Shown here piece by piece: positions 564-60,661 of a stretch of DNA of 64,000 nt (position 1 is the first letter of the stretch; each line of letters opens with the position of its first letter). Made by a program: the position numbers and the translations under genes. The DNA is taken from the IMG/VR virus record IMGVR_UViG_3300025133_000024; one strand, 5' to 3'. The notes beneath the pieces are model-generated. The model ran no database searches. It saw only the letters and a program-made list of their open reading frames with translations, and was not told where the DNA came from. Source of the stretch: a virus.

Positions 564-3500
564 TTATTTTCCAAAATCAATTTTTACTTTTAAATTTGCT
601 AGCTCAACAAGAGAACAAAAATCATAAGGCCAATTGTAATTGTAATCGACTTTTCTCTTCTCTATTCTATCAGTCTTGACCTTAATATTTTCATAATCTG
701 GAATTATATCAAAATAATTCTTTCCAGCCTTTCTCTTTACTTTAAATACCAACCATTTTAACTTTTCGGGAATTTCCATGTCCCCAAAGAATTCATCTTC
801 ATTCATTTTATGCTCAATCTGGATTTCTTGCTCAGAAGCATTTAAAGCAATTTTTGGCATCACTCCTTGCCAAATATCTGATAGGTCTTGTTTGTCAAGT
901 TCCGAAGAAAATTCGAAAATATAAATTATGAACGGATTAATATTATTATTATCATTAGAGAAATCCATGAACGGAGGAAAATAATATTTATCCATCCTCT
1001 TTATCATGTTGCTAACGCTAGTTTCTTTCTGAGAAACATTACTTGCTATGTTCTGCTTTGTTTGTCTAAAATGTTCTTTGTTAATGCCAATAAAGTTCCG
1101 ACCACCAACACTAACAGTTTTTTCACTCTTGTTATCAACATAAGGAATTGCAACAATTGCCTCTTTGATAACCTTTTTGCTTGCCAACTTTCCAATTCTC
1201 TTGCGCTTTGCCCCAAAACCACAAGCCTGAATTAGGGAACCTGTCAAACCAAAAGAACCCGATGCAATTTGAAGACCATATGAACCACTTTGAGGAAATG
1301 ATTCTTCCAAAGACAAATAAATCCCCTCAGAACCCGTTGGAATTGAACCATAGGTTCCCCAAATCCCTGAACTGAGAAATGCAGGTTGGTATGTAAAGCC
1401 ACTATCATCAGAATAAACATCATTGATGTGAGGTGAGCGCTGCGTTCCATTGAAGTTTAATGTTGGACATTCAAATTTGGAAGCAATGACCCAAGAATCA
1501 AAACCGGATGAGTCATCAGAGTCCAAACTATTTCCTTTTCCAAAAAGATTCACAGAAGATTCAACTCTCATGGAGTTTAATTGAGCCATTTCTAAATTAG
1601 ACTCACCACGCTGGTCAGTTGGTTGTGATGAACTAGCAACAGAAGATGCGATGATTTCGTCTACTGTGTACTTTCTTGTTTCAGTTGGAGAGAATGCTAG
1701 TCTTACTTTTGCTGCACCATAAAAATATGGTGGTGTATAAGGGGCATAAACAGGGTCTTTATAAAAAATTGCTCTAGAATCCGCATCAGAGCCAAAAACA
1801 TGTCCATCGCCCCAAGCATTAACAGGTGGGCCAAAATATCTTCCATGATATGAGCTTGATACTTCGAACTCGCTCCCCAAAGTACCGGATGGAACGCTTC
1901 CAGAGAAATAACTTCTTATCATATCAAAATTGTCCGTTTTTCTCAAGACAACATCCATATAATAAGTCTTTCCTGCCTTCATTATTGCAAATGTCTTTTC
2001 AGGTTTACTTGCAAATGTAGTTATTGTTTCATTTTCTAAAAAGAATTTGGGAACCTCCGACAAAAAGTTGTGCATAGACATTTCGAACTTATCAGATTTC
2101 TCCCCTTTCCAATAAACCCATGGGAATATAGTGTTTGCGCTTCCACTTTGTTGCAATATTTTATCTGGAGCAATGTGCATCAATCTTGAGCCAGATGGTA
2201 AGGTGTTTTTAATGTCAACAAGGGATTCGAATGGTAGGCGAAAATGATATTCACCACCCAAATTACCAAAAGATGACGACAACAGATATTCTTGCCAATC
2301 TTCTTGTACACCAGTTAAATCAAGACCACTTGCTGTCAAATATTGACTAGCAAATCCAGATGCATTATCGTCTGAACCTGTTATCATTGGCCAATCAACA
2401 GCAATACCAGATTTAATTGTATTAAAGACAATTCCAGGTGCAAAATAAGGTTGTAGAAGGGACTGCAAGCCTAATCCAGGCTTTGTATCATACAAAGAGC
2501 CTGAAATGTATGGGCCCAAAGATTGTGAAAATATTGCTCCGAGTTGTGTTGTTCTTGTTGTAGGATAAAAACCATTATAAGGAAGAAGCTTCTTCACTCC
2601 TTTACAGACTAATTTTATCTTTTTTGTTTTCCCAAAATCTCTTCTAAAAGTTTCAAAATGCTCCATGAAGTCGGAGTTTGTGTGTCTTTCGAAGAAATCG
2701 TTTATATACCCATCCCCAGGAGAAGCTGAGCTTTCACTCAAAATCCCACCTTTAACTTTCAAAAATGCATTGTTTTTTGAATTAAAACCTTTGTTTTCGT
2801 CAATATAGTAATCCATATAATCTGATATATTAAATTCAGACAAAACAGAATATTCTTTGTTGTATTTTATGTCTGAGGCATAATCTTCATACGAGTCAAA
2901 CCAAGGACTTTTACTTGATAGAGCAGGAACATCATAAGGATAGTTCATTTCTGTGAACTTGCCAATATTTGGCATATAAACAAACTGCAATGATGCTGTA
3001 ATATTATCATAATACGTTGAATCAATTGCATCATCTGTTGCTGTTCCACTCAAATAAGATTGTCCAGAACCATACATACCAATTTCGTTTGGAGAAACGT
3101 ATGAGATGAAACTTGATGTTGTTATAAAGGCAGATGGGTTTAATTCACCATGAGCAGAACCAGAATTAATCTTATTAACCGATAATAACCAAGGAGGAGA
3201 GTTTAGAACATCTTCACGGGCATGGTAAACATATTCATTGTCTAATGGGTGAACACTACGGCCATGTCTATATTCAACAGCGTTTTTAAAGGGAGTTGAG
3301 GAGGATATGGAGCTTCTAAATTTGTTTTTTTGCCAAAATGTTCTTCGTTCATCAATTCTTCTATCATATCCACTAACACCAAGGCCGCTTTCCTCAACAT
3401 ACCCTAATCTTGCTCTTGTTCCAGACAAAGATGTGTATTGACTTTGAGGAAACACCTGTTCACTATAACAATGATACAAAAGATTGTCATTCGCATTAAC

Positions 3501-6500
3501 AAATTCTTTTATCTTATTATATTCTGTCTTATTCTTCCCTTCAGGGTTGTGCTTTCTTTTTAGGTTTTTGTTTCCAAAATATTCTAGAGCATTATTGTGT
3601 TCATATTGAACTTTTAGGTTTTTATTGTTATATTCAAAGCCTGTTTCCAAAGGAAGATTATAAGAAATTGGTGGCTCTATGTATTTTGTCTCTTCTACTT
3701 CATTTTCAGGAACAATAGAGTAAACATTGTTCTTTTTTAACCATTTTGTTATTGGATGGTTGCTATTTCTTGTTTGTTTCCAACTTGTAAATCCACCTGG
3801 ACCTGTTCTTTTAAAGTTTAATGCGTTAAGAATAGAAGACACACCCTCTAAAGTTGAAGTATCATCCGTATCTTCTCCGTTTTGTCCATTTACTAACGCA
3901 TCATTTACATAATTTGATTGAACTCTTGTCCAATCACCAAATGGATTTGATACAACCAAACTTTCAAAACCCAATGTATTATTTGAACTTGTTATTGGTT
4001 CATAAATGTTCATGTTTAGGTTTAAAGTGGTTTCAGGAATGAAATTAAAACCAAAAGCTATCGCCTCAGTTGTTCCGAAGAATCGATTGTTTCCTGCTAT
4101 AGGGTTTCTATAGGAGCCAAAGTCACTTGCGCTAACAAACAATATGCTTCTGTGCTTTCCATCCCTCAAAGACCCTGAAGAATATTGAAAAGGGACGTTT
4201 TGATTGTTTATTATCAATTCATCAACTTGCAGTGCAGACTTTTTAATCCAAGAATATTGTAAATCACTTCTTGGAATTGCTCTCGACACAAAATTATTGT
4301 CATATTTGGAAGCCGTAATAAAGGAACTTCCACTTAATCTCATCTCATAAGAGATATTTCTATTTGTTTTATGGAATGATGCACTAACAGGGCTAAGAGG
4401 GTTGTCAATACCGAATTGATTGGATGCAGTAGCCCATAATTCATCTAAATAATTTCTAATTACAAGATTTATATAAGGTAATGCATTATAAGCAGAATAT
4501 TCACCCGCTTCCAAGTCCAAATAACCCTCAGCAGTTGTTTCTACAGAACCAGGAGAGGAAAATTTAGAGACAATTACAGAGTTACTACCAGTTAAATCTC
4601 TTCTTGGAACAGCATAATCATAAAGCCCTGTGACATTCTGTGAAGCAGTGAAAGAAGCTGTAATTCCGTTGTTTTCTCTCAGGTAAAAGTTGTTTTCTTT
4701 TCTTCCTGAGAGGGTTGCGACTTCATAGTTGTGTTGATAATTTCCTAAAACCTTGCTATCTGTTGTATGCTGTATATTTTTGACGTTTATTGGACTTTTT
4801 GCAAGATTATCTCTTGACCAACGAGAAAAAACAGTGTTCATGTTGGGATATAAAGCAGCACTATTATAATCAGGACCAACAAGTAGAATATCACCTCCTT
4901 CTTCCACAATTCTAAACCTTTCCGGTCTTGTGGATTTGTCATCTGTCCCTTGATTAATCTCTATGTGTCTGTGTTTATATCCACCAACATGAACATCTGT
5001 AAAAATACCTTGCACAGGCTTTTCTTTATCAAACCCATACAACTCATGATGCAAGTTTTCTACATTTGCACCCGTTAAAGTAATATTGTGAGCATCATTT
5101 ACACTTGATGACACAATATTAAATGGCATATATAACTCACCCTTACCCTCAAAAACATCATCACCACTTATTACATCAAATCCTAACTTTAATTCAGAAT
5201 TTTCATGATGTTTTGATTTTCCATCAACAATAATCTCATTAAATTCGTTACGTGGCTTTCCAGCATCCAAAGAGGAACTTGTAGCCCTTAATAGATTAAC
5301 ATTGATTCCTGCTATTGGAGTTGGACCTAATGGCTCTACAAATGGCTTATAAAAGGAAATATTTTTATTATTTGAAAAATTGATACCTCCTTTTATGATT
5401 TTTTGTTGGGAGGTGTTTAAAGTTTGTGTTTTTTTGCTTTCTTGTTGTAAAAATTGATTTTTTACATCTGCTAACAGTTTTCTATCTTGAATTTGTGCTG
5501 CTGTTAAAGAGGGCCATGCATTATCATCGTTAAATGCTTTGTCACTCCACCATTGGCCATGTAAGTTTTCGTTTAATGGCGAGGGAGCATGACCATGTTC
5601 CCAATTATAGTCAAATTCTCCAACGCCTTTCATCGAACCTGTTGTGGAAGGTTTTGTTTCTAGGAGAGGGAATTTGTGTTGAAATTTGTTTCTTTCAAAA
5701 ATATGACTTTCGACAACATCTAGTACATCTTCAGATACATTTAAGGATGCAGGAAATAACTGAGAGAGTGTTTTTGTTAAAGATTTATCAATCCATTTAT
5801 AATATTCAATAAACTTGTTGACATCAGGTGTGTTTTGGATTTTTGTAAAATATAGTTGTCGAAGTTTCTCTAAAGACTTATATTTGATTCGATATTTTTC
5901 AACAGGATGTCCGATTAAGTTGTTGTAGTCAACAATTGTCTCCATCCATTTTATCATATCTTCAGATATTGTTTGATATGGACTTTTTTCAACAAACAAA
6001 ATGTTTTTGACGGGCCTTGAAGTTTTTGTGTGAATTTCAAGGTCGGAATTCAAGATATTAATCATATCTGAACTATTGACTGTTTCCGGTATCCTGGGAA
6101 CAACAGTTGGTAGATATTTTTCTTGAATTACTTCTGAACTGGAAGTTAAAAAGAAATCACCCTTGCCAGGAAGTCTATATCCAAACGCACCACCAAAACC
6201 ACCATAAGAAGCCGAGGCATCTGTCTGTGAACCAGAAGTTTCATCGAAAACATGGAACTGTCCCAAGTCATTTGATGAAGAAATAGTGGAAAATTCCCAA
6301 TTAAAATTTAATGTTTTGATTTTAGGGATATAAAAATCTGAAACATCAGTATTATTGAGATAAGCATATTGATAAGGATTTTGAACACCAAAGTCACCTG
6401 TTTTGGCATGTGATAAAATGGAAGATGTTGGAATATAATCGGACCAACACCTTAAATTATTAACTTGTACATCTGAATATGTTAATAAAGAGCCTGTAAA

Positions 6501-9029
6501 GTTTGTTCTGTGCGCTCCAGCATAAACTCTTTTATCTGAAAGGAGGAAGTTTCTTCCTTGTGTGTTTGTTAGTGAAGCTGTTAAAGTAAATTCTCTAGTT
6601 TTCACTCCTCTTTCAGCGACTTTATCTTGAATTGTGTTAACACCATAAAGTTCAAGAATGTATGTTGGGGAGCTAGAACCAGTTGTTAAATCAACATAAG
6701 GATGTTTTGAAGGTTTAATTGAAACTGCAAAATTCCATTTGTCGTTATCATAGACATCTTCATAAAAGCTTGATGTTAATACAGGAAAAGTTGAATCTAA
6801 TGTCCCAGTTAATACAAATTTTGCATCTTTGGATTGTTTTGTTCTTCTTACTGCATAAATCTGAAGGGAAGCTGTTTCGGGAGTTTGCCATGTTAAGTTT
6901 GAACTGTCTGTTCCTAATGCATTATGACAACCAAACAAAGAAGATGAAGTGAAGTTTGTGTAAATGAAATTGTTATCAGATTGATTCCATTTTTTGGGAA
7001 ATACAATTTGAGATTCCAATGTAAACGGAACATATTGGTTATTGTCCCCTAAAGTGGGAACAAAAGAACGGCTATTTGTAGGGTCGTTACTTGCTGTAGA
7101 TTGATAAACTGTAGCATCAAAATGGTCTGGGTGGGAGAAGTTGATTAAATTATCTCTTTTTGAACCCAATGTGTGACTGTTTTTAAGTTCAAAAGATTCA
7201 TCATTTGCATATAAATTGATTTTTACTAAATCATCACCAACACCAAAGCACCTTAGGAGATTTCTATAGGACTCTTCAGTTCCTTTTGTTTTATAAAGGT
7301 GATTTAAGCTGTTGTATATGTTCTGATAGATAATGTTTTTTACTTCATCAACACTTTTAACAAAATGCTTATCAAAACTTCTGTTTTCAATATATTCTAG
7401 AACAGAAGCATTTTCGAATAACTCGGGGACCACAAAGTTGAAACTCTTAAGAGACTCTTTTATTAGTGTATTCGTTTCAACTTTGTCAGTGTCGTATGAA
7501 GGGGTTTTGTATTTGTTTATGTGTTCTGTCTTGAGAAATAAATCGTCAAGAGAAGATGCTAGAATCTGTGTTAATTTTTTAATTTCACCACCAGAGTTAG
7601 CATCCTCGTTCAATATCCACTTTGGTAAAGTGTAATATAAGGCAGAATTATTGGTTAAATCATGGTTTGAGCCTGAATCTATGAGATTGTTTAATAATGT
7701 GTTGACATCATTGTGAAATGAATAAACAATCGGGTCTTTAAATTCATAAAAAGATGCTGAGGATTCAATAATAGCAGAGCCGGTAGAACGGGGAGTTAAT
7801 GCCTGAGAGTATCCTGTCCATTGTCCGTTAGAAACCCTTCCAGAATAATCTAGAACAAGAGAATCAACACTTGATGTTTGTGTTATCCCTTCATTAAACT
7901 TATAATACAAACCAAGCTTTGTTGTGTTATCATCTGTATTTGTTCCACCACCAACAGTATCAAAATAATATTTTTTGATTTCTTCTGCGGTTCTTTTTGT
8001 TTTCCAAAAACGGAAATCATCCAGCGAAGAAGAAACCAATTTTCCATGACCTTCATCAACCCCTGATGCTCCGAATGGAGATGTTCGAATGGAACCAATA
8101 TTAGCAATTAAAGTTCCAGTAACCTCTTGTATTTCATCTCCCATCAACAACTCTTGATTTAAGTCACCGTTGATGTATAAACGACTATACATGCCACTAT
8201 CTTGGTTGTAAAAAACAAAAGCATAATGATTCCAAGAATTATTTGTTACGCTTGAAATAGCCGTAGAAGTTCCTGTTCCTAACTCTACATTCTCATTTCC
8301 GTCAGAGCCAGATTTGCAAGTAACCCTGAAGGTGGTATTTGAAGCTGTGAGATTCATCTCAATTTTCAAACGACCATATTCGTTGGATGTTGAATGTCCA
8401 TTCCATAAATCAAAAAGAACTTCTTTCGATGTTAATCCCAGGTCATAGCCATTCTTTTTTAACCAAAATTCTACAGTAACACCATTATTGGAACCACTAA
8501 AAGAACCAGTTGTGTTAAATTCAAGGTTGGAACGTCTTTTCTTTGTGTTGTCAAATAAATTTGTATTTTCGAATCTTAGTTTAGTTTGTTTTGATAATCT
8601 ATCTCCAGTTAAATCGAAACCAAGATTGGGTCCACCTTTAACTTGAATATATTCATAAGAGGATGAAGCTGGTGCACCATAACCATCAACTGTAGAAACT
8701 AATGTTCCCCAATTGTTTCCTAAGGTTCCATAGCCATTTGTTCTGGGATAGAAATTGTTAAAGATATATTTATCTAAAGCAGTTGATTCATTAATCCACT
8801 GTTGTTTTTCAAATTTAGAACCATCATAAGGATAAGTTTTATAAATTCTCTTAACAGAGTTTGTGTAATATTCTTCTGCCAATCCAAACCTAACAAAATT
8901 AGAAGCTGTGAGATAATCTATTGCTGGAGAGTATTGTTTCTTTTGTTCTAGAACGGCTTTTATCTGTTGTCCAGATTCAACCTGCTCACCCAATTCTTTT
9001 AAACTTTGTAATTCAAGATAATTTTTCAT
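564..9029 (-). CDS. Giant virion structural protein: LamG/concanavalin-A-like domains plus baseplate wedge/tail-protein-I-like region
   Basis: 2821 aa. LamG signature (VTVEFWLKK...WNHYAFV...LYINGDL...LDDFRFWK...YYKFNEG), a second LamG-like block (FTLESQIVF...KWNFAVSI...NNLRCWS), and a LYKTKGTEESYRNLLRCFG motif typical of P2 gpI/T4 wedge-like proteins; lies in the baseplate module. Confidence 0.7.
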   Translation of the reverse strand: MKNYLELQSLKELGEQVESGQQIKAVLEQKKQYSPAIDYLTASNFVRFGLAEEYYTNSVKRIYKTYPYDGSKFEKQQWINESTALDKYIFNNFYPRTNGYGTLGNNWGTLVSTVDGYGAPASSSYEYIQVKGGPNLGFDLTGDRLSKQTKLRFENTNLFDNTKKRRSNLEFNTTGSFSGSNNGVTVEFWLKKNGYDLGLTSKEVLFDLWNGHSTSNEYGRLKIEMNLTASNTTFRVTCKSGSDGNENVELGTGTSTAISSVTNNSWNHYAFVFYNQDSGMYSRLYINGDLNQELLMGDEIQEVTGTLIANIGSIRTSPFGASGVDEGHGKLVSSSLDDFRFWKTKRTAEEIKKYYFDTVGGGTNTDDNTTKLGLYYKFNEGITQTSSVDSLVLDYSGRVSNGQWTGYSQALTPRSTGSAIIESSASFYEFKDPIVYSFHNDVNTLLNNLIDSGSNHDLTNNSALYYTLPKWILNEDANSGGEIKKLTQILASSLDDLFLKTEHINKYKTPSYDTDKVETNTLIKESLKSFNFVVPELFENASVLEYIENRSFDKHFVKSVDEVKNIIYQNIYNSLNHLYKTKGTEESYRNLLRCFGVGDDLVKINLYANDESFELKNSHTLGSKRDNLINFSHPDHFDATVYQSTASNDPTNSRSFVPTLGDNNQYVPFTLESQIVFPKKWNQSDNNFIYTNFTSSSLFGCHNALGTDSSNLTWQTPETASLQIYAVRRTKQSKDAKFVLTGTLDSTFPVLTSSFYEDVYDNDKWNFAVSIKPSKHPYVDLTTGSSSPTYILELYGVNTIQDKVAERGVKTREFTLTASLTNTQGRNFLLSDKRVYAGAHRTNFTGSLLTYSDVQVNNLRCWSDYIPTSSILSHAKTGDFGVQNPYQYAYLNNTDVSDFYIPKIKTLNFNWEFSTISSSNDLGQFHVFDETSGSQTDASASYGGFGGAFGYRLPGKGDFFLTSSSEVIQEKYLPTVVPRIPETVNSSDMINILNSDLEIHTKTSRPVKNILFVEKSPYQTISEDMIKWMETIVDYNNLIGHPVEKYRIKYKSLEKLRQLYFTKIQNTPDVNKFIEYYKWIDKSLTKTLSQLFPASLNVSEDVLDVVESHIFERNKFQHKFPLLETKPSTTGSMKGVGEFDYNWEHGHAPSPLNENLHGQWWSDKAFNDDNAWPSLTAAQIQDRKLLADVKNQFLQQESKKTQTLNTSQQKIIKGGINFSNNKNISFYKPFVEPLGPTPIAGINVNLLRATSSSLDAGKPRNEFNEIIVDGKSKHHENSELKLGFDVISGDDVFEGKGELYMPFNIVSSSVNDAHNITLTGANVENLHHELYGFDKEKPVQGIFTDVHVGGYKHRHIEINQGTDDKSTRPERFRIVEEGGDILLVGPDYNSAALYPNMNTVFSRWSRDNLAKSPINVKNIQHTTDSKVLGNYQHNYEVATLSGRKENNFYLRENNGITASFTASQNVTGLYDYAVPRRDLTGSNSVIVSKFSSPGSVETTAEGYLDLEAGEYSAYNALPYINLVIRNYLDELWATASNQFGIDNPLSPVSASFHKTNRNISYEMRLSGSSFITASKYDNNFVSRAIPRSDLQYSWIKKSALQVDELIINNQNVPFQYSSGSLRDGKHRSILFVSASDFGSYRNPIAGNNRFFGTTEAIAFGFNFIPETTLNLNMNIYEPITSSNNTLGFESLVVSNPFGDWTRVQSNYVNDALVNGQNGEDTDDTSTLEGVSSILNALNFKRTGPGGFTSWKQTRNSNHPITKWLKKNNVYSIVPENEVEETKYIEPPISYNLPLETGFEYNNKNLKVQYEHNNALEYFGNKNLKRKHNPEGKNKTEYNKIKEFVNANDNLLYHCYSEQVFPQSQYTSLSGTRARLGYVEESGLGVSGYDRRIDERRTFWQKNKFRSSISSSTPFKNAVEYRHGRSVHPLDNEYVYHAREDVLNSPPWLLSVNKINSGSAHGELNPSAFITTSSFISYVSPNEIGMYGSGQSYLSGTATDDAIDSTYYDNITASLQFVYMPNIGKFTEMNYPYDVPALSSKSPWFDSYEDYASDIKYNKEYSVLSEFNISDYMDYYIDENKGFNSKNNAFLKVKGGILSESSASPGDGYINDFFERHTNSDFMEHFETFRRDFGKTKKIKLVCKGVKKLLPYNGFYPTTRTTQLGAIFSQSLGPYISGSLYDTKPGLGLQSLLQPYFAPGIVFNTIKSGIAVDWPMITGSDDNASGFASQYLTASGLDLTGVQEDWQEYLLSSSFGNLGGEYHFRLPFESLVDIKNTLPSGSRLMHIAPDKILQQSGSANTIFPWVYWKGEKSDKFEMSMHNFLSEVPKFFLENETITTFASKPEKTFAIMKAGKTYYMDVVLRKTDNFDMIRSYFSGSVPSGTLGSEFEVSSSYHGRYFGPPVNAWGDGHVFGSDADSRAIFYKDPVYAPYTPPYFYGAAKVRLAFSPTETRKYTVDEIIASSVASSSQPTDQRGESNLEMAQLNSMRVESSVNLFGKGNSLDSDDSSGFDSWVIASKFECPTLNFNGTQRSPHINDVYSDDSGFTYQPAFLSSGIWGTYGSIPTGSEGIYLSLEESFPQSGSYGLQIASGSFGLTGSLIQACGFGAKRKRIGKLASKKVIKEAIVAIPYVDNKSEKTVSVGGRNFIGINKEHFRQTKQNIASNVSQKETSVSNMIKRMDKYYFPPFMDFSNDNNNINPFIIYIFEFSSELDKQDLSDIWQGVMPKIALNASEQEIQIEHKMNEDEFFGDMEIPEKLKWLVFKVKRKAGKNYFDIIPDYENIKVKTDRIEKRKVDYNYNWPYDFCSLVELANLKVKIDFGK

Positions 9030-9927: not shown

Positions 9928-10693
9928 TCACTATCTTCTCCTGCTCTACTTCCCAATCATTTATCATAATTTCAAATTCCTTTGAAACAGCTTCTTTTTG
10001 TTCTGGTTTTTTGAAATAAGATAATAATCTATCCCTCTCTTTCATTATTCCATCCTTAGTCACATCATCTTCAAAAATTTCAGTTACATGACCGTCATAA
10101 TTACTTGAAATGCTTCTTGACGAAATAACATCACCTAAGTATGTAATACTTCTTTCGTGTGGAACAAATATATCAAAACCATATCCCTCATCAGGTTTTA
10201 CAAAATCTCCCCCAATCGAAGAAACATACACCTTCTGTGATGAAATTTGAAAAATATTTTTTACAGAACTTGGGTCTATTAATGGCTCTCTATCTGTTCC
10301 TCTTTTGCCAGAATCTATTCCATCAAAAACCCAAAAATCTTCATTAAAAACTCTATCAAAAAATAAACTATTTGCTTGTCTTTTAAAAATATGCATTTCA
10401 ATTGGAATGCCAACTATAATTTTATTTTCACTGAAAAATAAAATAGGATAAGCCGACAAGCCACTTTCATATTGTTGGTGGGCGCGATAATTATCTGGTC
10501 CATGCAACCACCACTCTTCTTCATATGAACCATGAATCATTGATGAATTAATTCCAGCAGGATTACCTAACCTAAAAAACTTACAATCTATAAAAGTTGC
10601 ATTTTTACCCCTTTTGACAAAAGAGTAATTTTGGTTTTCTAGTAATAATCTCTTAGTTTCTTCTTTTATAATCTTCTTTATTCTATTCTTCAA
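9917..10693 (-). CDS. Hypothetical protein with IIKEE leader
   Basis: ORF track starts at 10774 inside the upstream gene; a TTG at 10693 overlapping the upstream stop gives MKNRIKKIIKEETKRLLLEN, matching the leader of the neighbour. Confidence 0.7.
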   Translation of the reverse strand: MKNRIKKIIKEETKRLLLENQNYSFVKRGKNATFIDCKFFRLGNPAGINSSMIHGSYEEEWWLHGPDNYRAHQQYESGLSAYPILFFSENKIIVGIPIEMHIFKRQANSLFFDRVFNEDFWVFDGIDSGKRGTDREPLIDPSSVKNIFQISSQKVYVSSIGGDFVKPDEGYGFDIFVPHERSITYLGDVISSRSISSNYDGHVTEIFEDDVTKDGIMKERDRLLSYFKKPEQKEAVSKEFEIMINDWEVEQEKIVNEH

Positions 10694-23238: not shown

Positions 23239-23549
23239 TATTTGTTAGTTCCCTTTTTTGGTTCATTCTCTTTAATTTCATCAAACATATCATCAGCGCT
23301 AAAATCTTCGTCATCATCAAATCTATCTTCTTTTAAAATTATCGAAGCAGCTTTTAGAATTTGTTCGTTTGACCTTTGCATGTTGTCAATATATTTTGAC
23401 AATACTGGTCCAACATCCCTATGGGACTCACCAGTGCTCTTTAATTTGACCATTAACTCTAAAACCATTGCACCAACAAGATTTCTATCTGATGTCGCAT
23501 ATTCAATTACTTTTTCAATTTCTTCGTATTTCTTATTAGATATAGCCAT
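23238..23549 (-). CDS. Small hypothetical protein
   Basis: ATG at 23549 overlaps the end of the sigma gene (ORF track start 23576); helical with acidic tail. Confidence 0.7.
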   Translation of the reverse strand: MAISNKKYEEIEKVIEYATSDRNLVGAMVLELMVKLKSTGESHRDVGPVLSKYIDNMQRSNEQILKAASIILKEDRFDDDEDFSADDMFDEIKENEPKKGTNK

Positions 23550-49804: not shown

Positions 49805-50076
49805 TACTTCTCCAATTTCTTTTCATGGTGTTTTTGTCGCGATTGTTCAGATAAAAGTCTCTTTCTCATTTTTTCAAAATCTTTCTTGCCCATGTATTCT
49901 TTCAAAATATCACTAGAAAAAAAAGACTCAATATTATAAGATGGTTTGTCATCGGATGTGTTAGGGTCTTTGATTGCTACAAATACGACTGAGGGGTATA
50001 AATCATAACCCTCTAACATAGGCATTGTTGTTGGGGACGCTAACTTCCATGTATTTTTCTTTCGATGATTCTCCAT
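49804..50076 (-). CDS. Hypothetical protein
   Basis: 90-aa ORF; start uncertain. Confidence 0.55.
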   Translation of the reverse strand: MENHRKKNTWKLASPTTMPMLEGYDLYPSVVFVAIKDPNTSDDKPSYNIESFFSSDILKEYMGKKDFEKMRKRLLSEQSRQKHHEKKLEK

Positions 50077-50497
50077 TTGTTTTTTTCACTCTCTCTAGTT
50101 CAAATTTATTTACATGTTCGGCTCCCAACCAAGGAACAAGTCTGGAAATATCTAATCCAGGTTCATCCTTTATTTGCTTCTTAATTTCATGAAGTGGGTT
50201 GTATCTGTTACTTGATAATATAGGTTTCATCTCCAGCAACTGTTCTCTTGTTTTCTTTCTAAAGGGGTAAAACAACAAAAATTTAACAGTATAAAACAAA
50301 GATACAAAAAATTCAGGAATCAAATAAAAATACAATTTAAATTGTTTAAAATGTTTTCTTTCCATATTATATTGGTGAAATTTTCCGTACCAATATCTCT
50401 TGTATTGTTCTTCTGCGATTTTATCTTCTGAATCCATAATTGAAACTTCAATAGGGCGCATAAAGTTTTTTTCAATGTTGCTTAAATTTTCTGTCAT
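50003..50497 (-). CDS. Hypothetical protein
   Basis: ORF track 50003..50533; the ATG at 50497 removes the overlap with the GT4 gene. Confidence 0.6.
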   Translation of the reverse strand: MTENLSNIEKNFMRPIEVSIMDSEDKIAEEQYKRYWYGKFHQYNMERKHFKQFKLYFYLIPEFFVSLFYTVKFLLFYPFRKKTREQLLEMKPILSSNRYNPLHEIKKQIKDEPGLDISRLVPWLGAEHVNKFELERVKKTNGESSKEKYMEVSVPNNNAYVRGL

Positions 50498-50511
50498 TTC
50501 ATGTCCTCTTT

Positions 50512-51765
50512 TTAAAGCTCTTTCACTTCCCATGATTCATATCCTTTTCTATTTTCCCAAGAACCATGTTTTTCAACAACATCATCCATAATTTTAACCC
50601 ATTTTTCTTCAAACTTGTTAAAATTATAGTTTTTATGCATATGCTTCATTCCGTTCAAACCCATCTTTTCATACTTTTCAGGCTTGTTTTTCCACATATC
50701 ATAAAGTTCTTTGAGTTTTTTCAAAAATGTTTCTTTGTTAATCCTGTCTTCATAAATGTAAGGAACCTGCTGAGAGCCGACGACCATTTGTGAACATGGC
50801 CTAATTCCTCTTCCAAACCATTTCTTTCCATCTGTCACTTGCTCTTGAAGTCCACCTGTCATCGTAACCAACACAGGAGTTGCACAATTAAGACTCTCCA
50901 AACAACTTAAACCAAAGCCCTCAGCATCAGAAATTGCAACTGTCAAGTCAACAGCGTTATACATTTGACATAAAGTTTCAGGAACAACAGCAGCCGTTGA
51001 AAACTTAACTTGTCCATCCATCAAATCAAAATCCACCACAATTTGTTCCAAATCAGGTCCATTAGGGTCTTTTGGGTTTGTATGCATCAACAACATTGCC
51101 TTGTCATGACCAACCATATCAAGAAAATCCTTGAACCAAACAATAAGATTCCCAGACATTTTTCTTCGTGCATTTCTACTATTAAAAAACAAGACAAACT
51201 TATCTTTGTCTTCCTTCAAAATATCTTCTTTCACTGCTTTCGAATTTAACCTGCAAAAAACATCTGGATTTGTTGTATGAGGAAGATATTCAGAGTCCAC
51301 TGAGGGAGAGACTTCTTTCACAATATCATGCGTTACTTTAGAAATACACACAATCTTGTCATTACTTTTGTAAAATTTGTCATTGTATTTGGGGGCATAA
51401 TAGTTGTCCCACACATGGTAGTATACCATCGGAATCAACGGGCGAACTTCGTTCTCAATCGTCCACAGCCATTCATAAAATCTTGGGTCTGTCATAAACC
51501 ACAAAACATCCGGTCGCTCTGTTCTCAAAATAGAGCGAATTGCATCTTGATTTCCATATCCATCAACAGGATAAACAATAAAGTCTTCTCCCCAGGGGTC
51601 AATTGCTTGTGGCTCATAAGATTGATGTTTGATTGCACCACCCAAACAAACAAATTTATAGCGGTCTGTTTTTAATAATGCTTCAATAAACATTTTTGTT
51701 TGAGTTCCAACTCCAGATGGACTCATGGGATGGTCACTTATAACCAATACTTTTTTCTTATTCAT
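50512..51765 (-). CDS. GT4-family glycosyltransferase
   Basis: SDHPMSPSGVG, FFNSRNARRK, ISDAEGFGLSCLESL...TGGLQEQV. Confidence 0.9.
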   Translation of the reverse strand: MNKKKVLVISDHPMSPSGVGTQTKMFIEALLKTDRYKFVCLGGAIKHQSYEPQAIDPWGEDFIVYPVDGYGNQDAIRSILRTERPDVLWFMTDPRFYEWLWTIENEVRPLIPMVYYHVWDNYYAPKYNDKFYKSNDKIVCISKVTHDIVKEVSPSVDSEYLPHTTNPDVFCRLNSKAVKEDILKEDKDKFVLFFNSRNARRKMSGNLIVWFKDFLDMVGHDKAMLLMHTNPKDPNGPDLEQIVVDFDLMDGQVKFSTAAVVPETLCQMYNAVDLTVAISDAEGFGLSCLESLNCATPVLVTMTGGLQEQVTDGKKWFGRGIRPCSQMVVGSQQVPYIYEDRINKETFLKKLKELYDMWKNKPEKYEKMGLNGMKHMHKNYNFNKFEEKWVKIMDDVVEKHGSWENRKGYESWEVKEL

Positions 51766-52760: not shown

Positions 52761-53645
52761 TTACCACCTACAATATTCAGTTTTATAAAATGAACAGAAT
52801 TTACAAGAATCTCGATTCTTTGGGAACAAATTCAACTCATCACTTTTGATAACTTTGCTGAGGAGGGAGAGAGCGTTGCTTGTTTTTTTGTTGCCCGAAG
52901 AGATTCTTAACAACTCAACCTTTTCTTCCTTTGCTGTTCTCTTGAGAAGAATAAAATAAGTCTCAACGTCCTTTTTATCCCAGTTGTATTTGTTGCACAG
53001 AAAGTTCTTGTATAACGTCAATTGATAAGTTATTTTGGGGTCTGTTTTTTTCTTAAGGTTCCAGCCCCAAGATGTTGTTTTAAAATCGATAATATGAATT
53101 TTATTGTCTTTTTTGGTTTTTAGAATCAAATCCACAAAACCTGTGAAAACATATCCCTTTTGCTTCAGGGGCGTATAAATTCTGTCTTCACATCCTAGAA
53201 CTTCATAATCACCAAAGTATTCTTTCAAACAAGGAAGAATCAAGTTTGAAATTTCTTGACCTTGAAGTCTCATCTCAGAAAGTAGTTTTTTATTAAAAGT
53301 TTTATAAAGATTGTCTTTGAAGTGTTTTAAGGTGGCAGGATAAGTGTTTAGTTTTTGTTCTGTCAGTTTCTTGTTATTGTAGAACTCGATGAAGAATTTT
53401 GAGGCTAGAAACAAAACAAGGCTTTTGTCATAGTGTTCAACAAAAGCCTTATCAAAATTTTCTGTTAGGTTTTCTAATGCGATTTGCTCACATATATCAT
53501 GAATTACATTTCCAAAAATAGTATATTCATTAGCCGTGAACGAAGAAAGTTTTTCTCGATATGAGAGTTTATATCTGTATGGGCACTCAATCCATGTTTT
53601 TATCGCTGAGTATGATATTTTTCTTTTGGGTTTTTTTAGATTCAT
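52761..53645 (-). CDS. RecB/AddB-like PD-(D/E)XK exonuclease with 4-Cys Fe-S staple
   Basis: SYSAIKTWIECP, GNVIH, E..I, GFVDLI...IIDFKT, C-terminal CKFC...C. Confidence 0.88.
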   Translation of the reverse strand: MNLKKPKRKISYSAIKTWIECPYRYKLSYREKLSSFTANEYTIFGNVIHDICEQIALENLTENFDKAFVEHYDKSLVLFLASKFFIEFYNNKKLTEQKLNTYPATLKHFKDNLYKTFNKKLLSEMRLQGQEISNLILPCLKEYFGDYEVLGCEDRIYTPLKQKGYVFTGFVDLILKTKKDNKIHIIDFKTTSWGWNLKKKTDPKITYQLTLYKNFLCNKYNWDKKDVETYFILLKRTAKEEKVELLRISSGNKKTSNALSLLSKVIKSDELNLFPKNRDSCKFCSFYKTEYCRW

Positions 53646-53898
53646 TTTTCTTCTTTTTACATAATTTTTCTTTCAACAAAAACTTAAAATTCCCTTCTAG
53701 TTTGTTCACATCCCAATTGCATACATAATCAACCTCTCCAAGATAATTCTCAATGTTATAGCCTTTGTCTGTTAATTCTTTTTCTGCGTCCTTCCAGGAA
53801 TACGCAAATTTCGCGTGCCTTGCTAGTACTCGTGCTTTTAATATAACACGTAGGGACACCTCTTGGCAAGTCTTTTTTATTTTTTTTTCTTTAAACAT
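53587..53898 (-). CDS. Hypothetical protein
   Basis: 103-aa basic ORF overlapping the neighbours. Confidence 0.55.
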   Translation of the reverse strand: MFKEKKIKKTCQEVSLRVILKARVLARHAKFAYSWKDAEKELTDKGYNIENYLGEVDYVCNWDVNKLEGNFKFLLKEKLCKKKKNESKKTQKKNIILSDKNMD

Positions 53899-54589
53899 TT
53901 TGGCCCGTTACCTCCATCTCTAAGTCCTTGATTCTATTGAACAAATTTGGACACACCACTTCAAGTCTCTCTTTACCGGCTAAATAATAATGCTCAAACC
54001 CATTGGCAAAATACTCTCTCAGAGATGTTGCAGCATAGGGAGAATAGAACAAATCTTGAGTAAAAGCTTCCAATTTATCATAACCGATGTGGTGATAAAA
54101 CAACTCATCTATTTCTTCGTCATAATCAGGCGAATGGAACTTGTTATACAACTGTTTATTAAAGTTTAGCCCTTTATTTGACAAGGTTTGATAAAGATTA
54201 TATCTTTTTTCAATAAATTCACCTTCAAGAGTTTTATCACCATAAATTAGGTTGTAATATCTTTCTTCTAGAGCATGACCCAATTCATGAACAACATCAT
54301 CTAAAAAATCTGATTCTGATTCTTGTCGATTTGTGACATAAATTGCATTATCTTTGAAGATAGCATTAATTTCTCGTTGTTCGAATTCTTTAATATGAGC
54401 AACATAAATCCCATCAATCGCATTAAAATATCTCGGCGGGATATTTTTTTTAACATAATCGACAATATAATTTATATTAAAGAATTCAGGAAGAGAATGA
54501 ACAATCGTCATTTGACAATTATTAGTTATTTCAACAATGCTTTGTTTGTTTTTTTCAGGAATTGCTTTCTTTATATATTCTAAAATCAT
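53891..54589 (-). CDS. Zincin metallopeptidase (lethal-factor-like)
   Basis: VVHELGHALE plus SPYAATSLREYFANGFE. Confidence 0.75.
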   Translation of the reverse strand: MILEYIKKAIPEKNKQSIVEITNNCQMTIVHSLPEFFNINYIVDYVKKNIPPRYFNAIDGIYVAHIKEFEQREINAIFKDNAIYVTNRQESESDFLDDVVHELGHALEERYYNLIYGDKTLEGEFIEKRYNLYQTLSNKGLNFNKQLYNKFHSPDYDEEIDELFYHHIGYDKLEAFTQDLFYSPYAATSLREYFANGFEHYYLAGKERLEVVCPNLFNRIKDLEMEVTGQNV

Positions 54590-54846
54590 TATTTTTTACC
54601 TTCTTCATCTTTTACTTCTTCTTTATCTTGAAGGGCTTGATTGTATCCTCGAAAAAAATTCTCTTCAGCTAAAATCTGAAGAAACTCAGGAAATTCTTCT
54701 GAGAATATGTCGAAGACCATTTCAACATCAACTTTGTTATCTTCGGGTTTTAATTTTTCTCCTGTATATTCAACAATCAAATCTCGCAAAGTAATATTTT
54801 CTTCCGATGTTGTTAAAAGTTTTTTAAGCAATGGATGTTTAAGCAT
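54589..54846 (-). CDS. Small hypothetical protein
   Basis: 85 aa, EEFPEF...AEENFFRGY.QAL.D pattern. Confidence 0.7.
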   Translation of the reverse strand: MLKHPLLKKLLTTSEENITLRDLIVEYTGEKLKPEDNKVDVEMVFDIFSEEFPEFLQILAEENFFRGYNQALQDKEEVKDEEGKK

Positions 54847-54857
54847 GATATTTTCCT

Positions 54858-56177
54858 TTATAAAAGTTCTGCTGCTAGGGATGCCACTTCACTTCTGTGA
54901 CCTTTAATCAAGTGAACATGTCCCGATAATTTTTGTTCTTTAAATTTCTCTACAAGATATGTCAAGCCATTCGTTCTTTTGTTAATCTTGTGATTGTCAA
55001 TTTGGTCAATATCTCCTGTGAAAATAATCTTAGAACCTTTACCAACCCTGGTTAAAATAGTCTTTATTTCATGTGGGTGAAGATTTTGACTTTCATCAAT
55101 GATGATAATTGAATTTGCTAGTGAACGTCCACGAATATAAGTTGGAGCTTCAACTTCAATTATTCCCTCGACAATATATTCTTCAAATATAGATTTATCA
55201 CCAAATAGAAACTCAAGATTATCTTTAATAGGTGAAACCCAAGGAGATAATTTTTCTTGCATATTTCCTGGGAGGTAGCCAATGTCGTTCCCCATTGGTT
55301 GAATTGGTCTAGAAACAATGACCTTGTTGTACTGTTCTGTGACTAAAGTCTGATACAAAGCTGTAGAGAGAGCTAATAATGTCTTTCCACATCCACTTTT
55401 CCCGACCAATGTAACAACCGGAACATTTTTATCCAATAACAAGTTCATTGAAAAATTCTGTTCTTTGTTCAGAGGCACAGCCCAATCAACACTAAAATTA
55501 TCAAAATCATATTTTTTAAAAGATTTTTTATTATATTCTTTGATAAGTTGGAAAATGCCTGATTCTCGATGTCTTACCAAAGCAGATTTATTAGTTTTTG
55601 TTTTGAAAATTACAAAGTCATTTGGAAATAAATCATATTTTGTTTCTTGGTGAATTTGTTTTTTAACAAATAATAAGTCCATATCTTCTTCTGAAATAGT
55701 GTGTGTTTTTGTAGTTTGCAAGGAATAATCAAGGGTTTTTTCTTGGGAGACAGTATCTTCGTAATCAATACCTAAAAACATTGCTTTCAACTGGAGGTTG
55801 AAGTCGTTTGATAATAACACAACTTTTTTATTTTTTTTCTTAAAAAACAAACAAACGTTCAAAATTTTATCATCTGGTTTGTTTAGGTCCAGTTCACCCG
55901 ATAAATTATCCAAAATATCTTCTTGCAAAATAAGAAAGCCATGCTGAGGGGATATTTTTGCTTTTTTCTTGTTGGGTGATTTTTCTATGATTTCTTTTAT
56001 TAACCTTATGGATTGACGGGCATGATAGCCACTCTCCTTTTTGTTAGTTTTGTTGTTGTCGAGTTCTTTAATTACTTGATATGGGAGAATTAAGTTGTTT
56101 GTTTTGTAATCAAGAATACAGGAAGAATCGTTAAGGAGGGTGTTTGTGTCTAGAACATAGTAGGTTTTTTTAGCCAT
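54858..56177 (-). CDS. phoH: PIN-PhoH protein (PhoH2/YlaK-like)
   Basis: YVLDTN...ELD...DDKIL...SNDFNL (PIN); GKSGCGKT Walker A, YIRGRSL, IIDESQN, ILTRVG, TGDIDQID; start refined to 56177. Confidence 0.95.
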   Translation of the reverse strand: MAKKTYYVLDTNTLLNDSSCILDYKTNNLILPYQVIKELDNNKTNKKESGYHARQSIRLIKEIIEKSPNKKKAKISPQHGFLILQEDILDNLSGELDLNKPDDKILNVCLFFKKKNKKVVLLSNDFNLQLKAMFLGIDYEDTVSQEKTLDYSLQTTKTHTISEEDMDLLFVKKQIHQETKYDLFPNDFVIFKTKTNKSALVRHRESGIFQLIKEYNKKSFKKYDFDNFSVDWAVPLNKEQNFSMNLLLDKNVPVVTLVGKSGCGKTLLALSTALYQTLVTEQYNKVIVSRPIQPMGNDIGYLPGNMQEKLSPWVSPIKDNLEFLFGDKSIFEEYIVEGIIEVEAPTYIRGRSLANSIIIIDESQNLHPHEIKTILTRVGKGSKIIFTGDIDQIDNHKINKRTNGLTYLVEKFKEQKLSGHVHLIKGHRSEVASLAAELL

Positions 56178-56266
56178 GTAACGTTTTTTAACTCCAACTT
56201 GCAAAAATTAATGGAAAAAAAGTTTCTCCGTAAAATAGGGAACTTACAGAAAATCGTAAAAAATAC

Positions 56267-56401: not shown

Positions 56402-57208
56402 ATGTCTTATAAAACTTTATATAAATTATTTATTATTATTTTTATGTTAAATATTTCTTGTTTATATAATATTAAAACTAAAAATATAATAAATAATAAA
56501 AAAACATATATACAATCTAGTATATTAAAATTAGAAAATAAAGTATATCTAAAAATAATAAATAAAAAAAATAATAAACTTATAAATATTTTAAATTTTA
56601 ATTCTTCTTCTACTGGTATATATATAAAACATAAAAATAAGAAATATTATATTTTAACTGTATTTCATTCTATTAATCAATCTATAAAATATCTAAAAAA
56701 AATAAGAAAAGTATTATATCCCAATAAAAAGAAATATAAATTAAAATTTATATACAAAATTAATGGTATTTCTTATAACTTAAAAAATCATAAATTTAAT
56801 ATACAAAAAATATCTAAAAAATATGATTTAATGATTTTATATACAAAACAAAAAATAAATTATAAGCCTATGATAATAGCAAAACGAAAACCGAAACAAT
56901 ACACAAAAATTAGAACAGCTTCTGTTCCACTTGGATACCATTTCGATAATTTTATTTATACATTTCAAGGAATTTATTTAGGAGAAAGAAAGAAAAAATC
57001 ATACTTCTTCAGCAAAACAAAAAAATCCCCAAAAGGAGATTACTCAATATATACCTCAGTGATTTATCCAGGTTCTTCTGGAGGAGCTATCACTCAGAAC
57101 AATAAATTAATTGGAGTTATTCTTGGTTATGATATACGTATACGAAATTCAATGTTATCTGCCACACTAAAAGAAATACAAACCTTTACGAAATTCCTTT
57201 TTCAATAA
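56402..57208 (+). CDS. Trypsin-like (S1) serine protease, possibly secreted or lipoprotein
   Basis: ILTVFH (His), YDLMIL (Asp), YPGSSGG (Ser); hydrophobic N-terminus ending in SC. Confidence 0.8.
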   Translation: MSYKTLYKLFIIIFMLNISCLYNIKTKNIINNKKTYIQSSILKLENKVYLKIINKKNNKLINILNFNSSSTGIYIKHKNKKYYILTVFHSINQSIKYLKKIRKVLYPNKKKYKLKFIYKINGISYNLKNHKFNIQKISKKYDLMILYTKQKINYKPMIIAKRKPKQYTKIRTASVPLGYHFDNFIYTFQGIYLGERKKKSYFFSKTKKSPKGDYSIYTSVIYPGSSGGAITQNNKLIGVILGYDIRIRNSMLSATLKEIQTFTKFLFQ

Positions 57209-59056: not shown

Positions 59057-60661
59057 TTAATTAAATACTACATTAGCATCAATGCCGCTACCAGAATTAT
59101 ATAACTGAGAGACTTGATAAGATGATAGTTCAAAGTCCCAAATGCTCACTTCATCAACACTTCCACTTTTAAACGGACTATCACCATTTAAAGCACCAAT
59201 TGATAATTGAGTTGAGCCAGTAACAATCGTGTTTGAAGCTAATGTGTCATATTCAGTTGTTGTTCCAATTACAGCACCATCTACATATAATGCTACGTCT
59301 GATGCAGAACCACTTCCATTATACGTTGCAACCAAGTGATGCCATGCATTGTTGTTTCTTGAACCAACTGAATCTCTTACTCCAATTCTTTGATTATCAG
59401 ACCAATCATTAACTAAATGGAACACTAAATCACCACCCTGTAAACCCATTCTCCAACCACGATAAGGTTCAGCAGATTCCATTTTGCTCACAATATATGA
59501 TGTGTCTGAAGCTGCTGTCTTGAACCATGCACTAACCGAAAATGGAATATTATGTTCGAAGTTAACAATTTCGCTACCAGCCACAACATGACCATAAACA
59601 GTCGAGCCATCCATTGCCAAAGCTTTTGTTCCTGAAACAAATGTGTTGTCTTCGAAAGATGTAACTTCCATGTTTTGTGTTGTTCCTGGATGTGAACCCT
59701 GAACATCCGTGACTGTGGTGTCAATCCCATCAGACATATCATAATATGCGACAAGATTTGATGGTGAAATCGTGGACGCTGGCTCTCCATTTCCACTATT
59801 GTATAGTGATGAAATTGAACCTGAGTCTAATGGAGTGTCCCATAAAGCAACTTGTGTTATTTTTCCATTAAAAGGAGTTCCAGCATCAACACCCCTCGCT
59901 CCAATTTTCATTGTTCCCACTGAAGCCTTAGGGTTGACAGTTATGTTTTTCTCTCCATCGTGAGAACCATTTAAATATATTTTCCAAATAGAACCACTAG
60001 CAACTCCAATCACATGTTGCCAAGAAGACTGAGGGATGTTAGTTCCACCAACCAAAGCTTGCGCTCCATCATCATCGTCCAAAGGTGTCCATTGTAACTT
60101 GTTGTCTCCTCGAATCCTCATGGACCAACCACCATTATCAGTTGGATTTACATAATCAAATTTCTCCAACATCGAATGTTGCGTGTTTACAGCGTTTCTT
60201 TTTATCCACATAGAGATTGAAAAATTAGAACCTGTAAATTCTAAATCATCATGCTCTGGAACATCCACATATTCATTCGAACCATCCATGTTCAGACTTT
60301 GATAGACACTGCCCCAAGGAATGTCTCTAGACCAATCTGAATAAACATTCATGACAATATTGCTTCCCGACAAACTTGTATCTGTCATTGTGTTTAAGGA
60401 CTTTTCAACGTCATAATAAATAACAGGGTAAATTGGGTCTGGAGGTGGTGGAGCCGAAGCACTCTCAGCCAACGAACCACTAAAATATAATTCCAATTTA
60501 TCACTTTGAGCAACAAGATATGGACGATAATTTTTGTTTAAATGCATTGGAAAAGAAGAATATAAAAATAATGGAACACCAACACCATTCCAATCTGAAG
60601 AAACATCAACCGCATTTCTTAATGTAAATTTATCGTCTTTTGAATTGTTTTGTTTTGCCAT
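59057..60661 (-). CDS. Virion protein with two LamG/concanavalin-A-like domains
   Basis: FSISMWIK...WQHVIGV...IYLNG...KIGARG...FNGKITQVALW and FSVSAWFK...WHHLVATY...LYVDG...SIGA...VDEVSIW. Confidence 0.88.
   Translation of the reverse strand: MAKQNNSKDDKFTLRNAVDVSSDWNGVGVPLFLYSSFPMHLNKNYRPYLVAQSDKLELYFSGSLAESASAPPPPDPIYPVIYYDVEKSLNTMTDTSLSGSNIVMNVYSDWSRDIPWGSVYQSLNMDGSNEYVDVPEHDDLEFTGSNFSISMWIKRNAVNTQHSMLEKFDYVNPTDNGGWSMRIRGDNKLQWTPLDDDDGAQALVGGTNIPQSSWQHVIGVASGSIWKIYLNGSHDGEKNITVNPKASVGTMKIGARGVDAGTPFNGKITQVALWDTPLDSGSISSLYNSGNGEPASTISPSNLVAYYDMSDGIDTTVTDVQGSHPGTTQNMEVTSFEDNTFVSGTKALAMDGSTVYGHVVAGSEIVNFEHNIPFSVSAWFKTAASDTSYIVSKMESAEPYRGWRMGLQGGDLVFHLVNDWSDNQRIGVRDSVGSRNNNAWHHLVATYNGSGSASDVALYVDGAVIGTTTEYDTLASNTIVTGSTQLSIGALNGDSPFKSGSVDEVSIWDFELSSYQVSQLYNSGSGIDANVVFN

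Follow-up and report, generated by a model that had tools for sequence, protein, structure and literature searches.

An order-specific [S/T]-[G/A/S]-S tripeptide in outward-facing virion proteins of a large uncultured myophage: a candidate acceptor tag for O-glycosylation by phage-encoded glycosyltransferases

In Gram-positive bacteria, GtfA and GtfB form the O-GlcNAc priming complex for serine-rich-repeat adhesins, in which GtfB is non-catalytic. Maf-type flagellin O-glycosyltransferases (PF01973, MptE-like/DUF115) add nonulosonic acids to Ser/Thr of flagellin and recognize no strict sequon, and the general O-glycosylation system of Bacteroidota, which is periplasmic and lipid-linked, uses the sequon D-[S/T]-[A/I/L/V/M/T]. 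To our knowledge, phage-encoded virion glycosylation is known only for mycobacteriophages, and we know of no short acceptor motif for any phage. In mycobacteriophage virions, capsid and tail-tube subunits have been shown chemically to carry glycans at their C-termini (Freeman et al. 2023 (Cell Host Microbe), as cited in PMC12619734). Here we analyse 64,000 nucleotides of IMG/VR virus record IMGVR_UViG_3300025133_000024 (this whole stretch is called the window), which come from a large uncultured myophage. Several of its virion proteins carry a large excess of the tripeptide [S/T]-[G/A/S]-S, and the same DNA encodes a conserved pair of glycosyltransferases (GTs), GT-A and GT-B, at the head of a sugar gene cluster. 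In our opinion, the chances are about even that [S/T]-[G/A, less often S]-S is an acceptor tag for cytoplasmic O-glycosylation of outward-facing virion proteins, carried out by the phage GTs with sugars made by the variable part of the cluster.

As in the mycobacteriophage system of the cited account, phage GTs are proposed here to modify the phage's own structural proteins in the cytoplasm, giving the virion a glycan coat. Unlike in that account, the candidate sites are internal tripeptides, read from sequence and spread along the loops of baseplate and fibre proteins and in the insertion domain of a relative's tail sheath, not at capsid or tail-tube C-termini, and the hosts are different.

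The window proteins that carry the main result, with three neighbours that serve for comparison, are listed below (lengths in amino acids, aa).

564-9029, minus strand: giant distal baseplate/fibre protein of 2821 aa, last gene of the baseplate module; one LamG domain (Pfam, residues 175-352); 58 motif sites.
10683-12215, minus strand: multi-domain beta-sandwich baseplate protein of 510 aa, with an AF2 model; 17 motif sites.
59057-60661, minus strand: putative virion protein of 534 aa with two LamG/ConA-like domains (Pfam LamG), lying apart from the baseplate module; 11 motif sites.
13937-15739, minus strand: gp6-like baseplate wedge protein, the inner-baseplate control; 1 motif site.
12217-13935, minus strand: protein of 572 aa between gp6 and the 510-aa protein, no family found; 1 motif site.
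16139-21211, minus strand: protein of 1690 aa upstream of gp6; 1 motif site.

The first line of evidence is the excess itself. Counts of [ST][GAS]S were compared with 1000 composition-preserving shuffles per protein. The 2821-aa protein has 58 sites against 11.2 expected (z 14), the 510-aa protein 17 against 2.9 (z 8) and the 534-aa LamG protein 11 against 3.5 (z 4), i.e., a three- to sixfold excess. The three comparison proteins are at expectation (gp6, 1 vs 1.3; 572-aa protein, 1 vs 1.0; 1690-aa protein, 1 vs 2.6; z ~0), and all enzymes of the window, including the sugar enzymes, are at or near it. The original prediction, made from manual counts, had put ~55, ~16 and 11 sites in the three motif-rich proteins and about one each in gp6 and the 1690-aa protein; the numbers and, under shuffling, their significance are borne out. 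Its lectin-fold labels stand in part: Pfam supports LamG domains in the 2821-aa and 534-aa proteins, whereas the 510-aa protein matches no Pfam family and its "DNRLRE-like" label is unconfirmed. The 534-aa protein also shows weak similarity to the LamG parts of the giant protein of G014, a complete 187-kb relative.

The excess is specific to the order of the residues. Thus, [ST][GA]S is enriched six- to eightfold, and the one-residue variants [^ST][GA]S and [ST][GA][^S] occur at expectation. Summed over the three motif-rich proteins, the reversed tripeptides are rare (TGS 16 vs SGT 4; TAS 14 vs SAT 0; TSS 9 vs SST 2), and an unbiased scan of all 8000 tripeptides places TAS, SGS, TGS and SSS as the top four. 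These results bear on the suggestion that the excess is artefactual and merely reflects Ser/Gly-rich composition, internal repeats or a motif at the DNA level. The enriched proteins are indeed Ser-rich (10.6-12.7%), but the shuffles preserve composition, and orthologues containing 9-10% Ser are not enriched. Codons at the motif sites are diverse, and comparison of the 2821-aa protein with itself gives no off-diagonal matches and hence no internal repeats, which indicates selection on the protein rather than a DNA motif or duplication. Shuffles, variants, codons and self-comparison together refute the artefact explanation, to which we attach next to no probability, and uphold the earlier claim that the pattern reflects order rather than serine richness.

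Residue preferences were derived from 1589 [ST][GA]S sites pooled from 121 related proteins. As the motif was the criterion by which these proteins had been chosen, the data are informative only when variants are compared with one another. The first position accepts only T (4.5x) or S (4.1x), the second prefers G (5.1x) to A (3.3x) and S (2.3x), and the third accepts only S (4.3x), with T at 1.2x. The flanks are hydrophobic at -1 and +3 and aromatic at -2; K, R, D and E are depleted near the sites, and proline at +3 is reduced to 0.2x. A three-residue sequon, which the tripeptide may be, recalls the general O-glycosylation system of Bacteroidota, and some relatives of the phage infect Bacteroidota. 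The sequon of that system is, however, a different one: D-[ST]-[AILVMT] is not enriched in the three motif-rich proteins (4 vs 8.7, 0 vs 2.1 and 3 vs 2.9 expected), and Asp directly before the motif is depleted to 0.3x. Another known sequon, N-x-[ST], is at or below expectation as well.

The second line of evidence is the distribution of the motif among related phages. A megablast search against cultured phages gave no match for the baseplate region, nor did a tblastn search with the 510-aa protein; the nearest matches of gp6, all at ~30% identity, are from Flavobacterium phage immuto, Microcystis phage Mel-JY01 and the uncultured 484-kb phage LR756508. A gp6 profile search recovered 80 related IMG/VR loci, in about 75 of which the motif is enriched ~2-4x in proteins encoded downstream of gp6; for gp6 and the proteins upstream of it, the ratio is ~1x across all 80. 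Orthologues of the 2821-aa protein occupy the same position after gp6 and range from 2.8 to 4.7 thousand residues. The order preference recurs in the distal baseplate/fibre proteins of immuto (TGS 21 vs SGT 6; TAS 16 vs SAT 1) and Mel-JY01 (TGS 12 vs SGT 1), and Rhodothermus phage RM378 has a moderate directional excess in a subset of its proteins (TGS 8 vs SGT 0). In LR756508, the excess downstream of gp6 is weak (~1.8x, as a sum of per-protein counts). Baseplate and fibre proteins of T4, a phage without the GT pair, show neither excess (z ~0) nor directionality. Tetrasphaera phage TJE1 is an uninformative control: it encodes a single, distant GT-A-like protein and lacks the pair, and its proteins show no excess of the motif.

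A separate observation concerns an immuto fibre protein of 1053 aa annotated as "tail spike protein" (L001:35287-38448). Many of its 60 motif sites fall within short repeats (SGSF-TGSF-xGDGSGLTG, [ST]AS[YF]), so that here the motif is part of the fibre repeat unit itself.

The complete genome of G014 allowed the virion to be compared with the rest of the proteome. Among its 96 open reading frames (ORFs) of 200 aa or more, seven exceed z 3: the giant protein, the orthologue of the 510-aa protein, two proteins without a known family, a baseplate-like protein, the tail sheath and one glycosyltransferase homologue with a small count. Those among the seven to which an identity could be given are, the small-count hit aside, virion proteins. 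The remaining ORFs, pooled, have 74 sites against 76 expected. All nine sites of the sheath lie within residues 143-629, outside its conserved core at 622-982. The motif is thus restricted to virion proteins and to their outward parts. The original prediction had described it as confined to lectin-fold, probably outer-surface proteins, which is right as to virion proteins and their outward parts and too narrow as to fold, the sheath insertion domain and other virion proteins being included in relatives.

The third line of evidence comes from the fold on which the motif is placed, with site placement judged by secondary structure and by patterns of substitution. For the 510-aa protein, AF2 gives a multi-domain beta-sandwich (pLDDT 86.7), and the best PDB match of this model is a carbohydrate-binding module. 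Fifteen of the 17 sites lie in loops or at strand ends, and 82% of the motif residues are in coil, compared with 61% of all residues and 69% of other S/T/G residues; in this model, therefore, the structural mapping called for by the original prediction puts the sites mostly in loops or at strand ends and not in strand interiors. This location is also what would be seen if the tripeptide were a lineage-specific structural or biophysical loop element, e.g., a Ser/Thr-capped tight turn that ends beta-strands and serves folding, hydration or packing, with no relation to the GTs, the sugar cluster having another task such as remodelling the host envelope. Hydrophobic flanks and the exclusion of proline after the motif suit such an element, as do the positional conservation of some sites, the generic relationships of GT-A and GT-B and the occurrence of motif-free distal baseplate orthologues alongside the GT pair, all considered below. 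We nevertheless regard this explanation as unlikely, though deserving serious consideration. The tail proteins of T4 have a comparable architecture and no such pattern. One would not expect a physical turn to occur only in the virion proteins of phages that have the GT pair, or only in the outer domains of the sheath, and the choice of Ser over Thr at the third position resembles recognition by an enzyme more than a physical requirement.

The same question is addressed by those orthologues that have lost the motif. Site counts are 5-27 in 48 of the 51 orthologues found for the 510-aa protein; the other three, in loci L009, L013 and L051, have 0, 1 and 1, respectively, and the giant proteins of these loci are likewise motif-poor. 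At homologous positions, the three orthologues carry residues rich in D, E, K and R, or deletions. Since orthologues of the same fold lack the motif, the fold can do without it, which also speaks against a structural loop element. In trees of both the 510-aa protein and gp6, the three loci are nested within motif-bearing lineages and the outgroups are motif-bearing; the motif-poor state is therefore derived. It arose once or twice, exchange of the distal baseplate module being one possible route. Loci L009, L051 and L013 were considered as cases of a GT pair present with the motif absent, which would have severed the motif from the pair. This description was dropped, as enrichment persists in their sheath and in two or three further virion proteins, and only the two proteins beside gp6 are poor. 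When whole contigs of the motif-poor group were scanned, three proteins stood out in G001, namely the sheath (8 sites vs 3.4 expected) and proteins of 459 aa (7 vs 1.9) and 694 aa (6 vs 1.1), and two in G004 (4 vs 0.7 and 8 vs 1.2).

The fourth line of evidence is the GT pair, which, with its surroundings, is arranged in the window as follows.

50512-51765, minus strand: GT-A, a GT4-family glycosyltransferase and first gene of the pair; EX7E motif intact.
48111-49367, minus strand: GT-B, a paralogous GT4-like glycosyltransferase and second gene of the pair; EX7E intact.
49364-50533, minus strand: three small ORFs (146, 90 and 176 aa) that separate GT-A from GT-B in the window, an insertion of 1.1 kb; no family for the 176-aa ORF.
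52761-56204, minus strand: conserved left flank of the pair, made up of PIN-PhoH (54858-56204), a 232-aa protein (53891-54589) and a PD-(D/E)XK nuclease (52761-53645).
46201-47886, minus strand: 561-aa double glycosyltransferase with a compact GT-B-like N-terminal domain (residues 1-290, ETxSRVIVE motif) and a GT2 domain (297-463).

GT-A and GT-B share 24-27% identity with each other. Their genes lie side by side in nearly all relatives, and in several the start and stop codons overlap; both proteins retain EX7E in the window and its clade. The two are orthologous in the window, immuto and Mel-JY01, where they follow the PD-(D/E)XK gene in synteny (~30% identity, E 1e-49 to 1e-60), and the whole succession PIN-PhoH, 232-aa protein, PD-(D/E)XK, GT-A and GT-B is syntenic in the clade contigs examined. 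A search of 27 contigs found the pair in 18; of the contigs in which it was not found, the nine that were worked through all have too short a stretch upstream of gp6 to reach its usual position. RM378 has an overlapping GT-A gene together with a divergent GT-B gene (hhalign probability 96%), and in LR756508 a clear GT-A orthologue was found and GT-B was not. These two GTs are the only conserved enzymes found to be common to the window clade, immuto, Mel-JY01 and RM378. As for the co-occurrence of motif and GTs across relatives, on which the original prediction had been staked, no relative was found that has equal enrichment and no GTs. Thus, of the refuting outcomes named in the original prediction, the three that were examined (in shuffles, in the structural model and among relatives) did not come about.

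The GT-B homologue of RM378 is Rm378p014 (L126:3949-5223), annotated as "hypothetical protein"; it has lost EX7E, with HGESW in place of EGFGLP.

In three relatives GT-B is part of a fusion protein. In G013 and G025 (L096:3696-5657 and L097:6309-8252) the partner is a GT2 domain. In G002 (L095:6923-8956) it is a Maf-type PF01973 domain (E 1.8e-8), of the family of cytoplasmic flagellin O-glycosyltransferases, and the gene that follows encodes a PseB-like dehydratase (PF02719, E 1.7e-82). This neighbourhood suggests that G002 may have a nonulosonic-acid pathway. The proposed modification resembles Maf-type systems in being a cytoplasmic O-glycosylation of exposed Ser/Thr on a secreted or assembled structural protein, with local hydrophobicity at the sites; the direct link is limited to G002, as PF01973 was not found in the window proteins or in G014, G016, G013, immuto and Mel-JY01.

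A further parallel is offered by GtfA/GtfB, which, like GT-A and GT-B, are two adjacent paralogous proteins of the GT-B fold. What is proposed for the phage would share with that system a cytoplasmic location, independence of a lipid carrier, Ser-rich acceptors with small residues separating the serines, and extension by further GTs. Unlike GtfA/GtfB, with its non-catalytic GtfB, both phage proteins keep EX7E, and the acceptors would be isolated tripeptides in folded beta-sandwich proteins rather than long disordered repeats. A search of PDB sequences with GT-A returned BshA, MshA, GlgA and other generic GT4 chains, and GT-B matched no solved structure; there was no GtfA or GtfB chain among the PDB sequence matches of either protein.

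Between the pair and the baseplate module lies the bulk of the sugar genes, delimited by the following elements.

25103-46204, minus strand: variable sugar island of ~21 kb.
23536-24225, minus strand: conserved 229-aa protein at the right edge of the island, before the baseplate module.

The sugar cluster as a whole spans 26.7 kb (25103-51765) and encodes at least six GT domains: the two GT4 proteins, the GT-B-like and GT2 domains of the 561-aa protein, a GT11 and a Glyco_trans_1_2 protein. The earlier description of a ~27-kb cluster with at least five GTs and no visible flippase or polymerase was therefore accurate. The island has six SDR epimerase/dehydratases, GHMP and PfkB kinases, a UDP-glucose dehydrogenase, a UDP-GlcNAc 2-epimerase and a short DegT-like protein; in addition to GT11 and Glyco_trans_1_2, its other genes encode a DUF268 protein, an S-adenosylmethionine (SAM) methyltransferase, a formyltransferase and a GDSL esterase. 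Methyltransferases, in the plural, lie within the 26.7-kb cluster. The DegT/WecE-like protein (40108-40740) has 210 aa and covers about half of the 360-position Pfam profile; its counterparts in immuto (43% identity), G014 (66%) and G016 (58%) are of the same size, which indicates a conserved short form rather than a pseudogene fragment.

From GT-B to the 229-aa protein, gene content differs in every relative examined, and the position of this stretch is fixed. A surface glycan under diversifying selection would be expected to show such variability. GT-B and gp6 are 16.7-33.8 kb apart in 15 contigs of the window clade (32.4 kb in the window itself), compared with 10.1 kb in G001 and G015. These two have the pair and lack the island: neither an epimerase, nor a GT2 domain, nor a homologue of the 561-aa protein was found in them. 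G001 still bears the motif on its sheath and other virion proteins, which makes the pair a better candidate than the island for the reader of the tag. Thus, the 27-kb cluster as a whole is not the correlate of the motif; the pair, and not the island, persists with it. The N-terminal domain of the 561-aa protein was also considered as a gene that tracks the motif and was dropped, as the motif-positive relatives G002 and G006 have no detectable homologue.

Among window ORFs of at least 80 aa, none is predicted to have more than two membrane helices, and hence no flippase or polymerase is encoded there. Neither a priming phosphoglycosyltransferase (Bac_transf, PF02397) nor a Wzx flippase (PF01943) was found in five relatives, though host enzymes may supply these functions. 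The lack of an encoded priming transferase or flippase for an envelope pathway is a further argument against the explanation in which the motif is purely structural and the cluster acts on the host envelope.

The association with GTs bears on two other accounts of the tripeptide. It might be the site of another covalent modification, such as phosphorylation, acylation or ADP-ribosylation, by an enzyme of the phage or host, with the sugar genes acting elsewhere. The crisp, enzyme-like specificity for Ser/Thr and the restriction to virion proteins would be expected in that case too, and the island contains methyl-, formyl- and GDSL-type acyl-handling enzymes. These, however, belong to the variable part of the cluster and are not conserved, neither a kinase nor any other enzyme that modifies proteins was seen to accompany the motif, and the only conserved enzymes found in all the motif-bearing lineages compared are the two GTs. 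We consider this account improbable. Alternatively, the cluster could glycosylate phage DNA or make a free or host-bound polysaccharide, the tripeptide being a non-covalent docking or binding element. Diverse glycans can be added to DNA as hypermodifications by virus-encoded GTs (Pyle et al. 2024, as cited in PMC12619734), and the GT pair adjoins the nuclease and PhoH genes. On the other hand, a ThyA-family pyrimidine hydroxymethylase (PF00303) was not found in G014 (complete), G016 or G001, a search for a DNA acceptor that was limited to the ThyA route; the Maf-type domain fused to GT-B suggests that the acceptor is a protein; and a Ser/Gly motif of three residues, dispersed across the loops of unrelated folds, would make an unlikely binding site. 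This account appears to us very improbable.

O-glycosylation of virion proteins, the preferred reading, would proceed as follows. GT-A and GT-B would start a glycan directly on Ser/Thr of soluble virion proteins in the host cytoplasm, and neither a lipid carrier nor a flippase would be needed at this step. The 561-aa double GT, GT11 and Glyco_trans_1_2 would extend the glycan, drawing on unusual sugar nucleotides made by the hypervariable island. The outcome would be a strain-specific sugar coat on the rim of the baseplate and on the fibres and, in relatives, on the surface of the sheath. In this scheme we infer the attachment of sugar itself, the residue that would carry it and the enzyme that would read the tag. 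What the scheme has to account for is observed directly: the excess of the tripeptide, its order specificity, its restriction to virion proteins, its dispensability for the fold and the synteny of the GT pair. These features, along with the conservation of the GT4 pair and the lack of genes for lipid-carrier export, favour the O-glycosylation proposed in the original prediction, with the reservation that a structural loop motif fits part of the data.

Several considerations weigh against O-glycosylation. About nine sites of the 510-aa protein are kept in position in 18-31 of 38 aligned orthologues, which a structural role explains equally well; a site occurs in at least one sequence in 78 columns of this alignment, so that the pattern is one of conservation mixed with turnover. 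In L009, L051 and L013 the two proteins adjoining gp6 are without the motif, though in L009 and L051 the pair is intact, with EX7E. The similarity of GT-A and GT-B is to GT4 enzymes in general and to no known protein O-glycosyltransferase. Every clade member with coverage has the pair, and the association of pair and motif is therefore phylogenetically confounded; the independent contrasts are few, namely T4 and LR756508, with immuto, Mel-JY01 and RM378 as positives. The candidate acceptor sites are read from sequence alone. Finally, the sugar island could serve another target.

The remaining genes of the window can be described briefly. Nearly all lie on the minus strand, in the order PIN-PhoH, 232-aa protein, PD-(D/E)XK nuclease, GT-A, GT-B, 561-aa double GT, ~21 kb of sugar genes, 229-aa protein and baseplate module. 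The module in turn runs from the M23 peptidase protein through a 320-aa protein, the 1690-aa protein and gp6 to proteins of 572, 510, 285, 298 and 2821 aa. The protein at its start (22189-23238, 349 aa) has a C-terminal M23 peptidase domain (E 5e-27) and is probably a cell-wall-degrading enzyme of the baseplate hub or tail tip. The 232-aa backbone protein (53891-54589) has a weak match to PF07737 (anthrax lethal factor N/C-terminal domain; E 1e-5, below the Pfam cut-off). The sole sizeable plus-strand gene (56402-57208) encodes a trypsin-like peptidase (PF13365, just above the cut-off).

A more general proposal can be made, to which we give somewhat less than an even chance: that tailed phages have a general, sequon-directed cytoplasmic O-glycosylation, in which a conserved GT4 pair encoded by adjacent genes recognizes [S/T]-[G/A]-S on the outward-facing regions of proteins of the baseplate, fibres, sheath and neck, an O-antigen-like island at a fixed position builds strain-specific glycans, and many aquatic phages, with hosts among Bacteroidota, Cyanobacteria and Rhodothermus, wear a self-made and fast-diversifying coat. 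With three cultured carriers (immuto, Mel-JY01 and RM378) and with enzymes and acceptors that are soluble, a role of the tripeptide as sequon is directly testable. If it is a genuine sequon, glycosylated virion surfaces would be predictable from sequence across many aquatic phages, and the large "LPS or sugar" clusters of big phages would be explained. A variable glycan coat of this kind could affect adsorption, stability, aggregation, and grazing or immune recognition.

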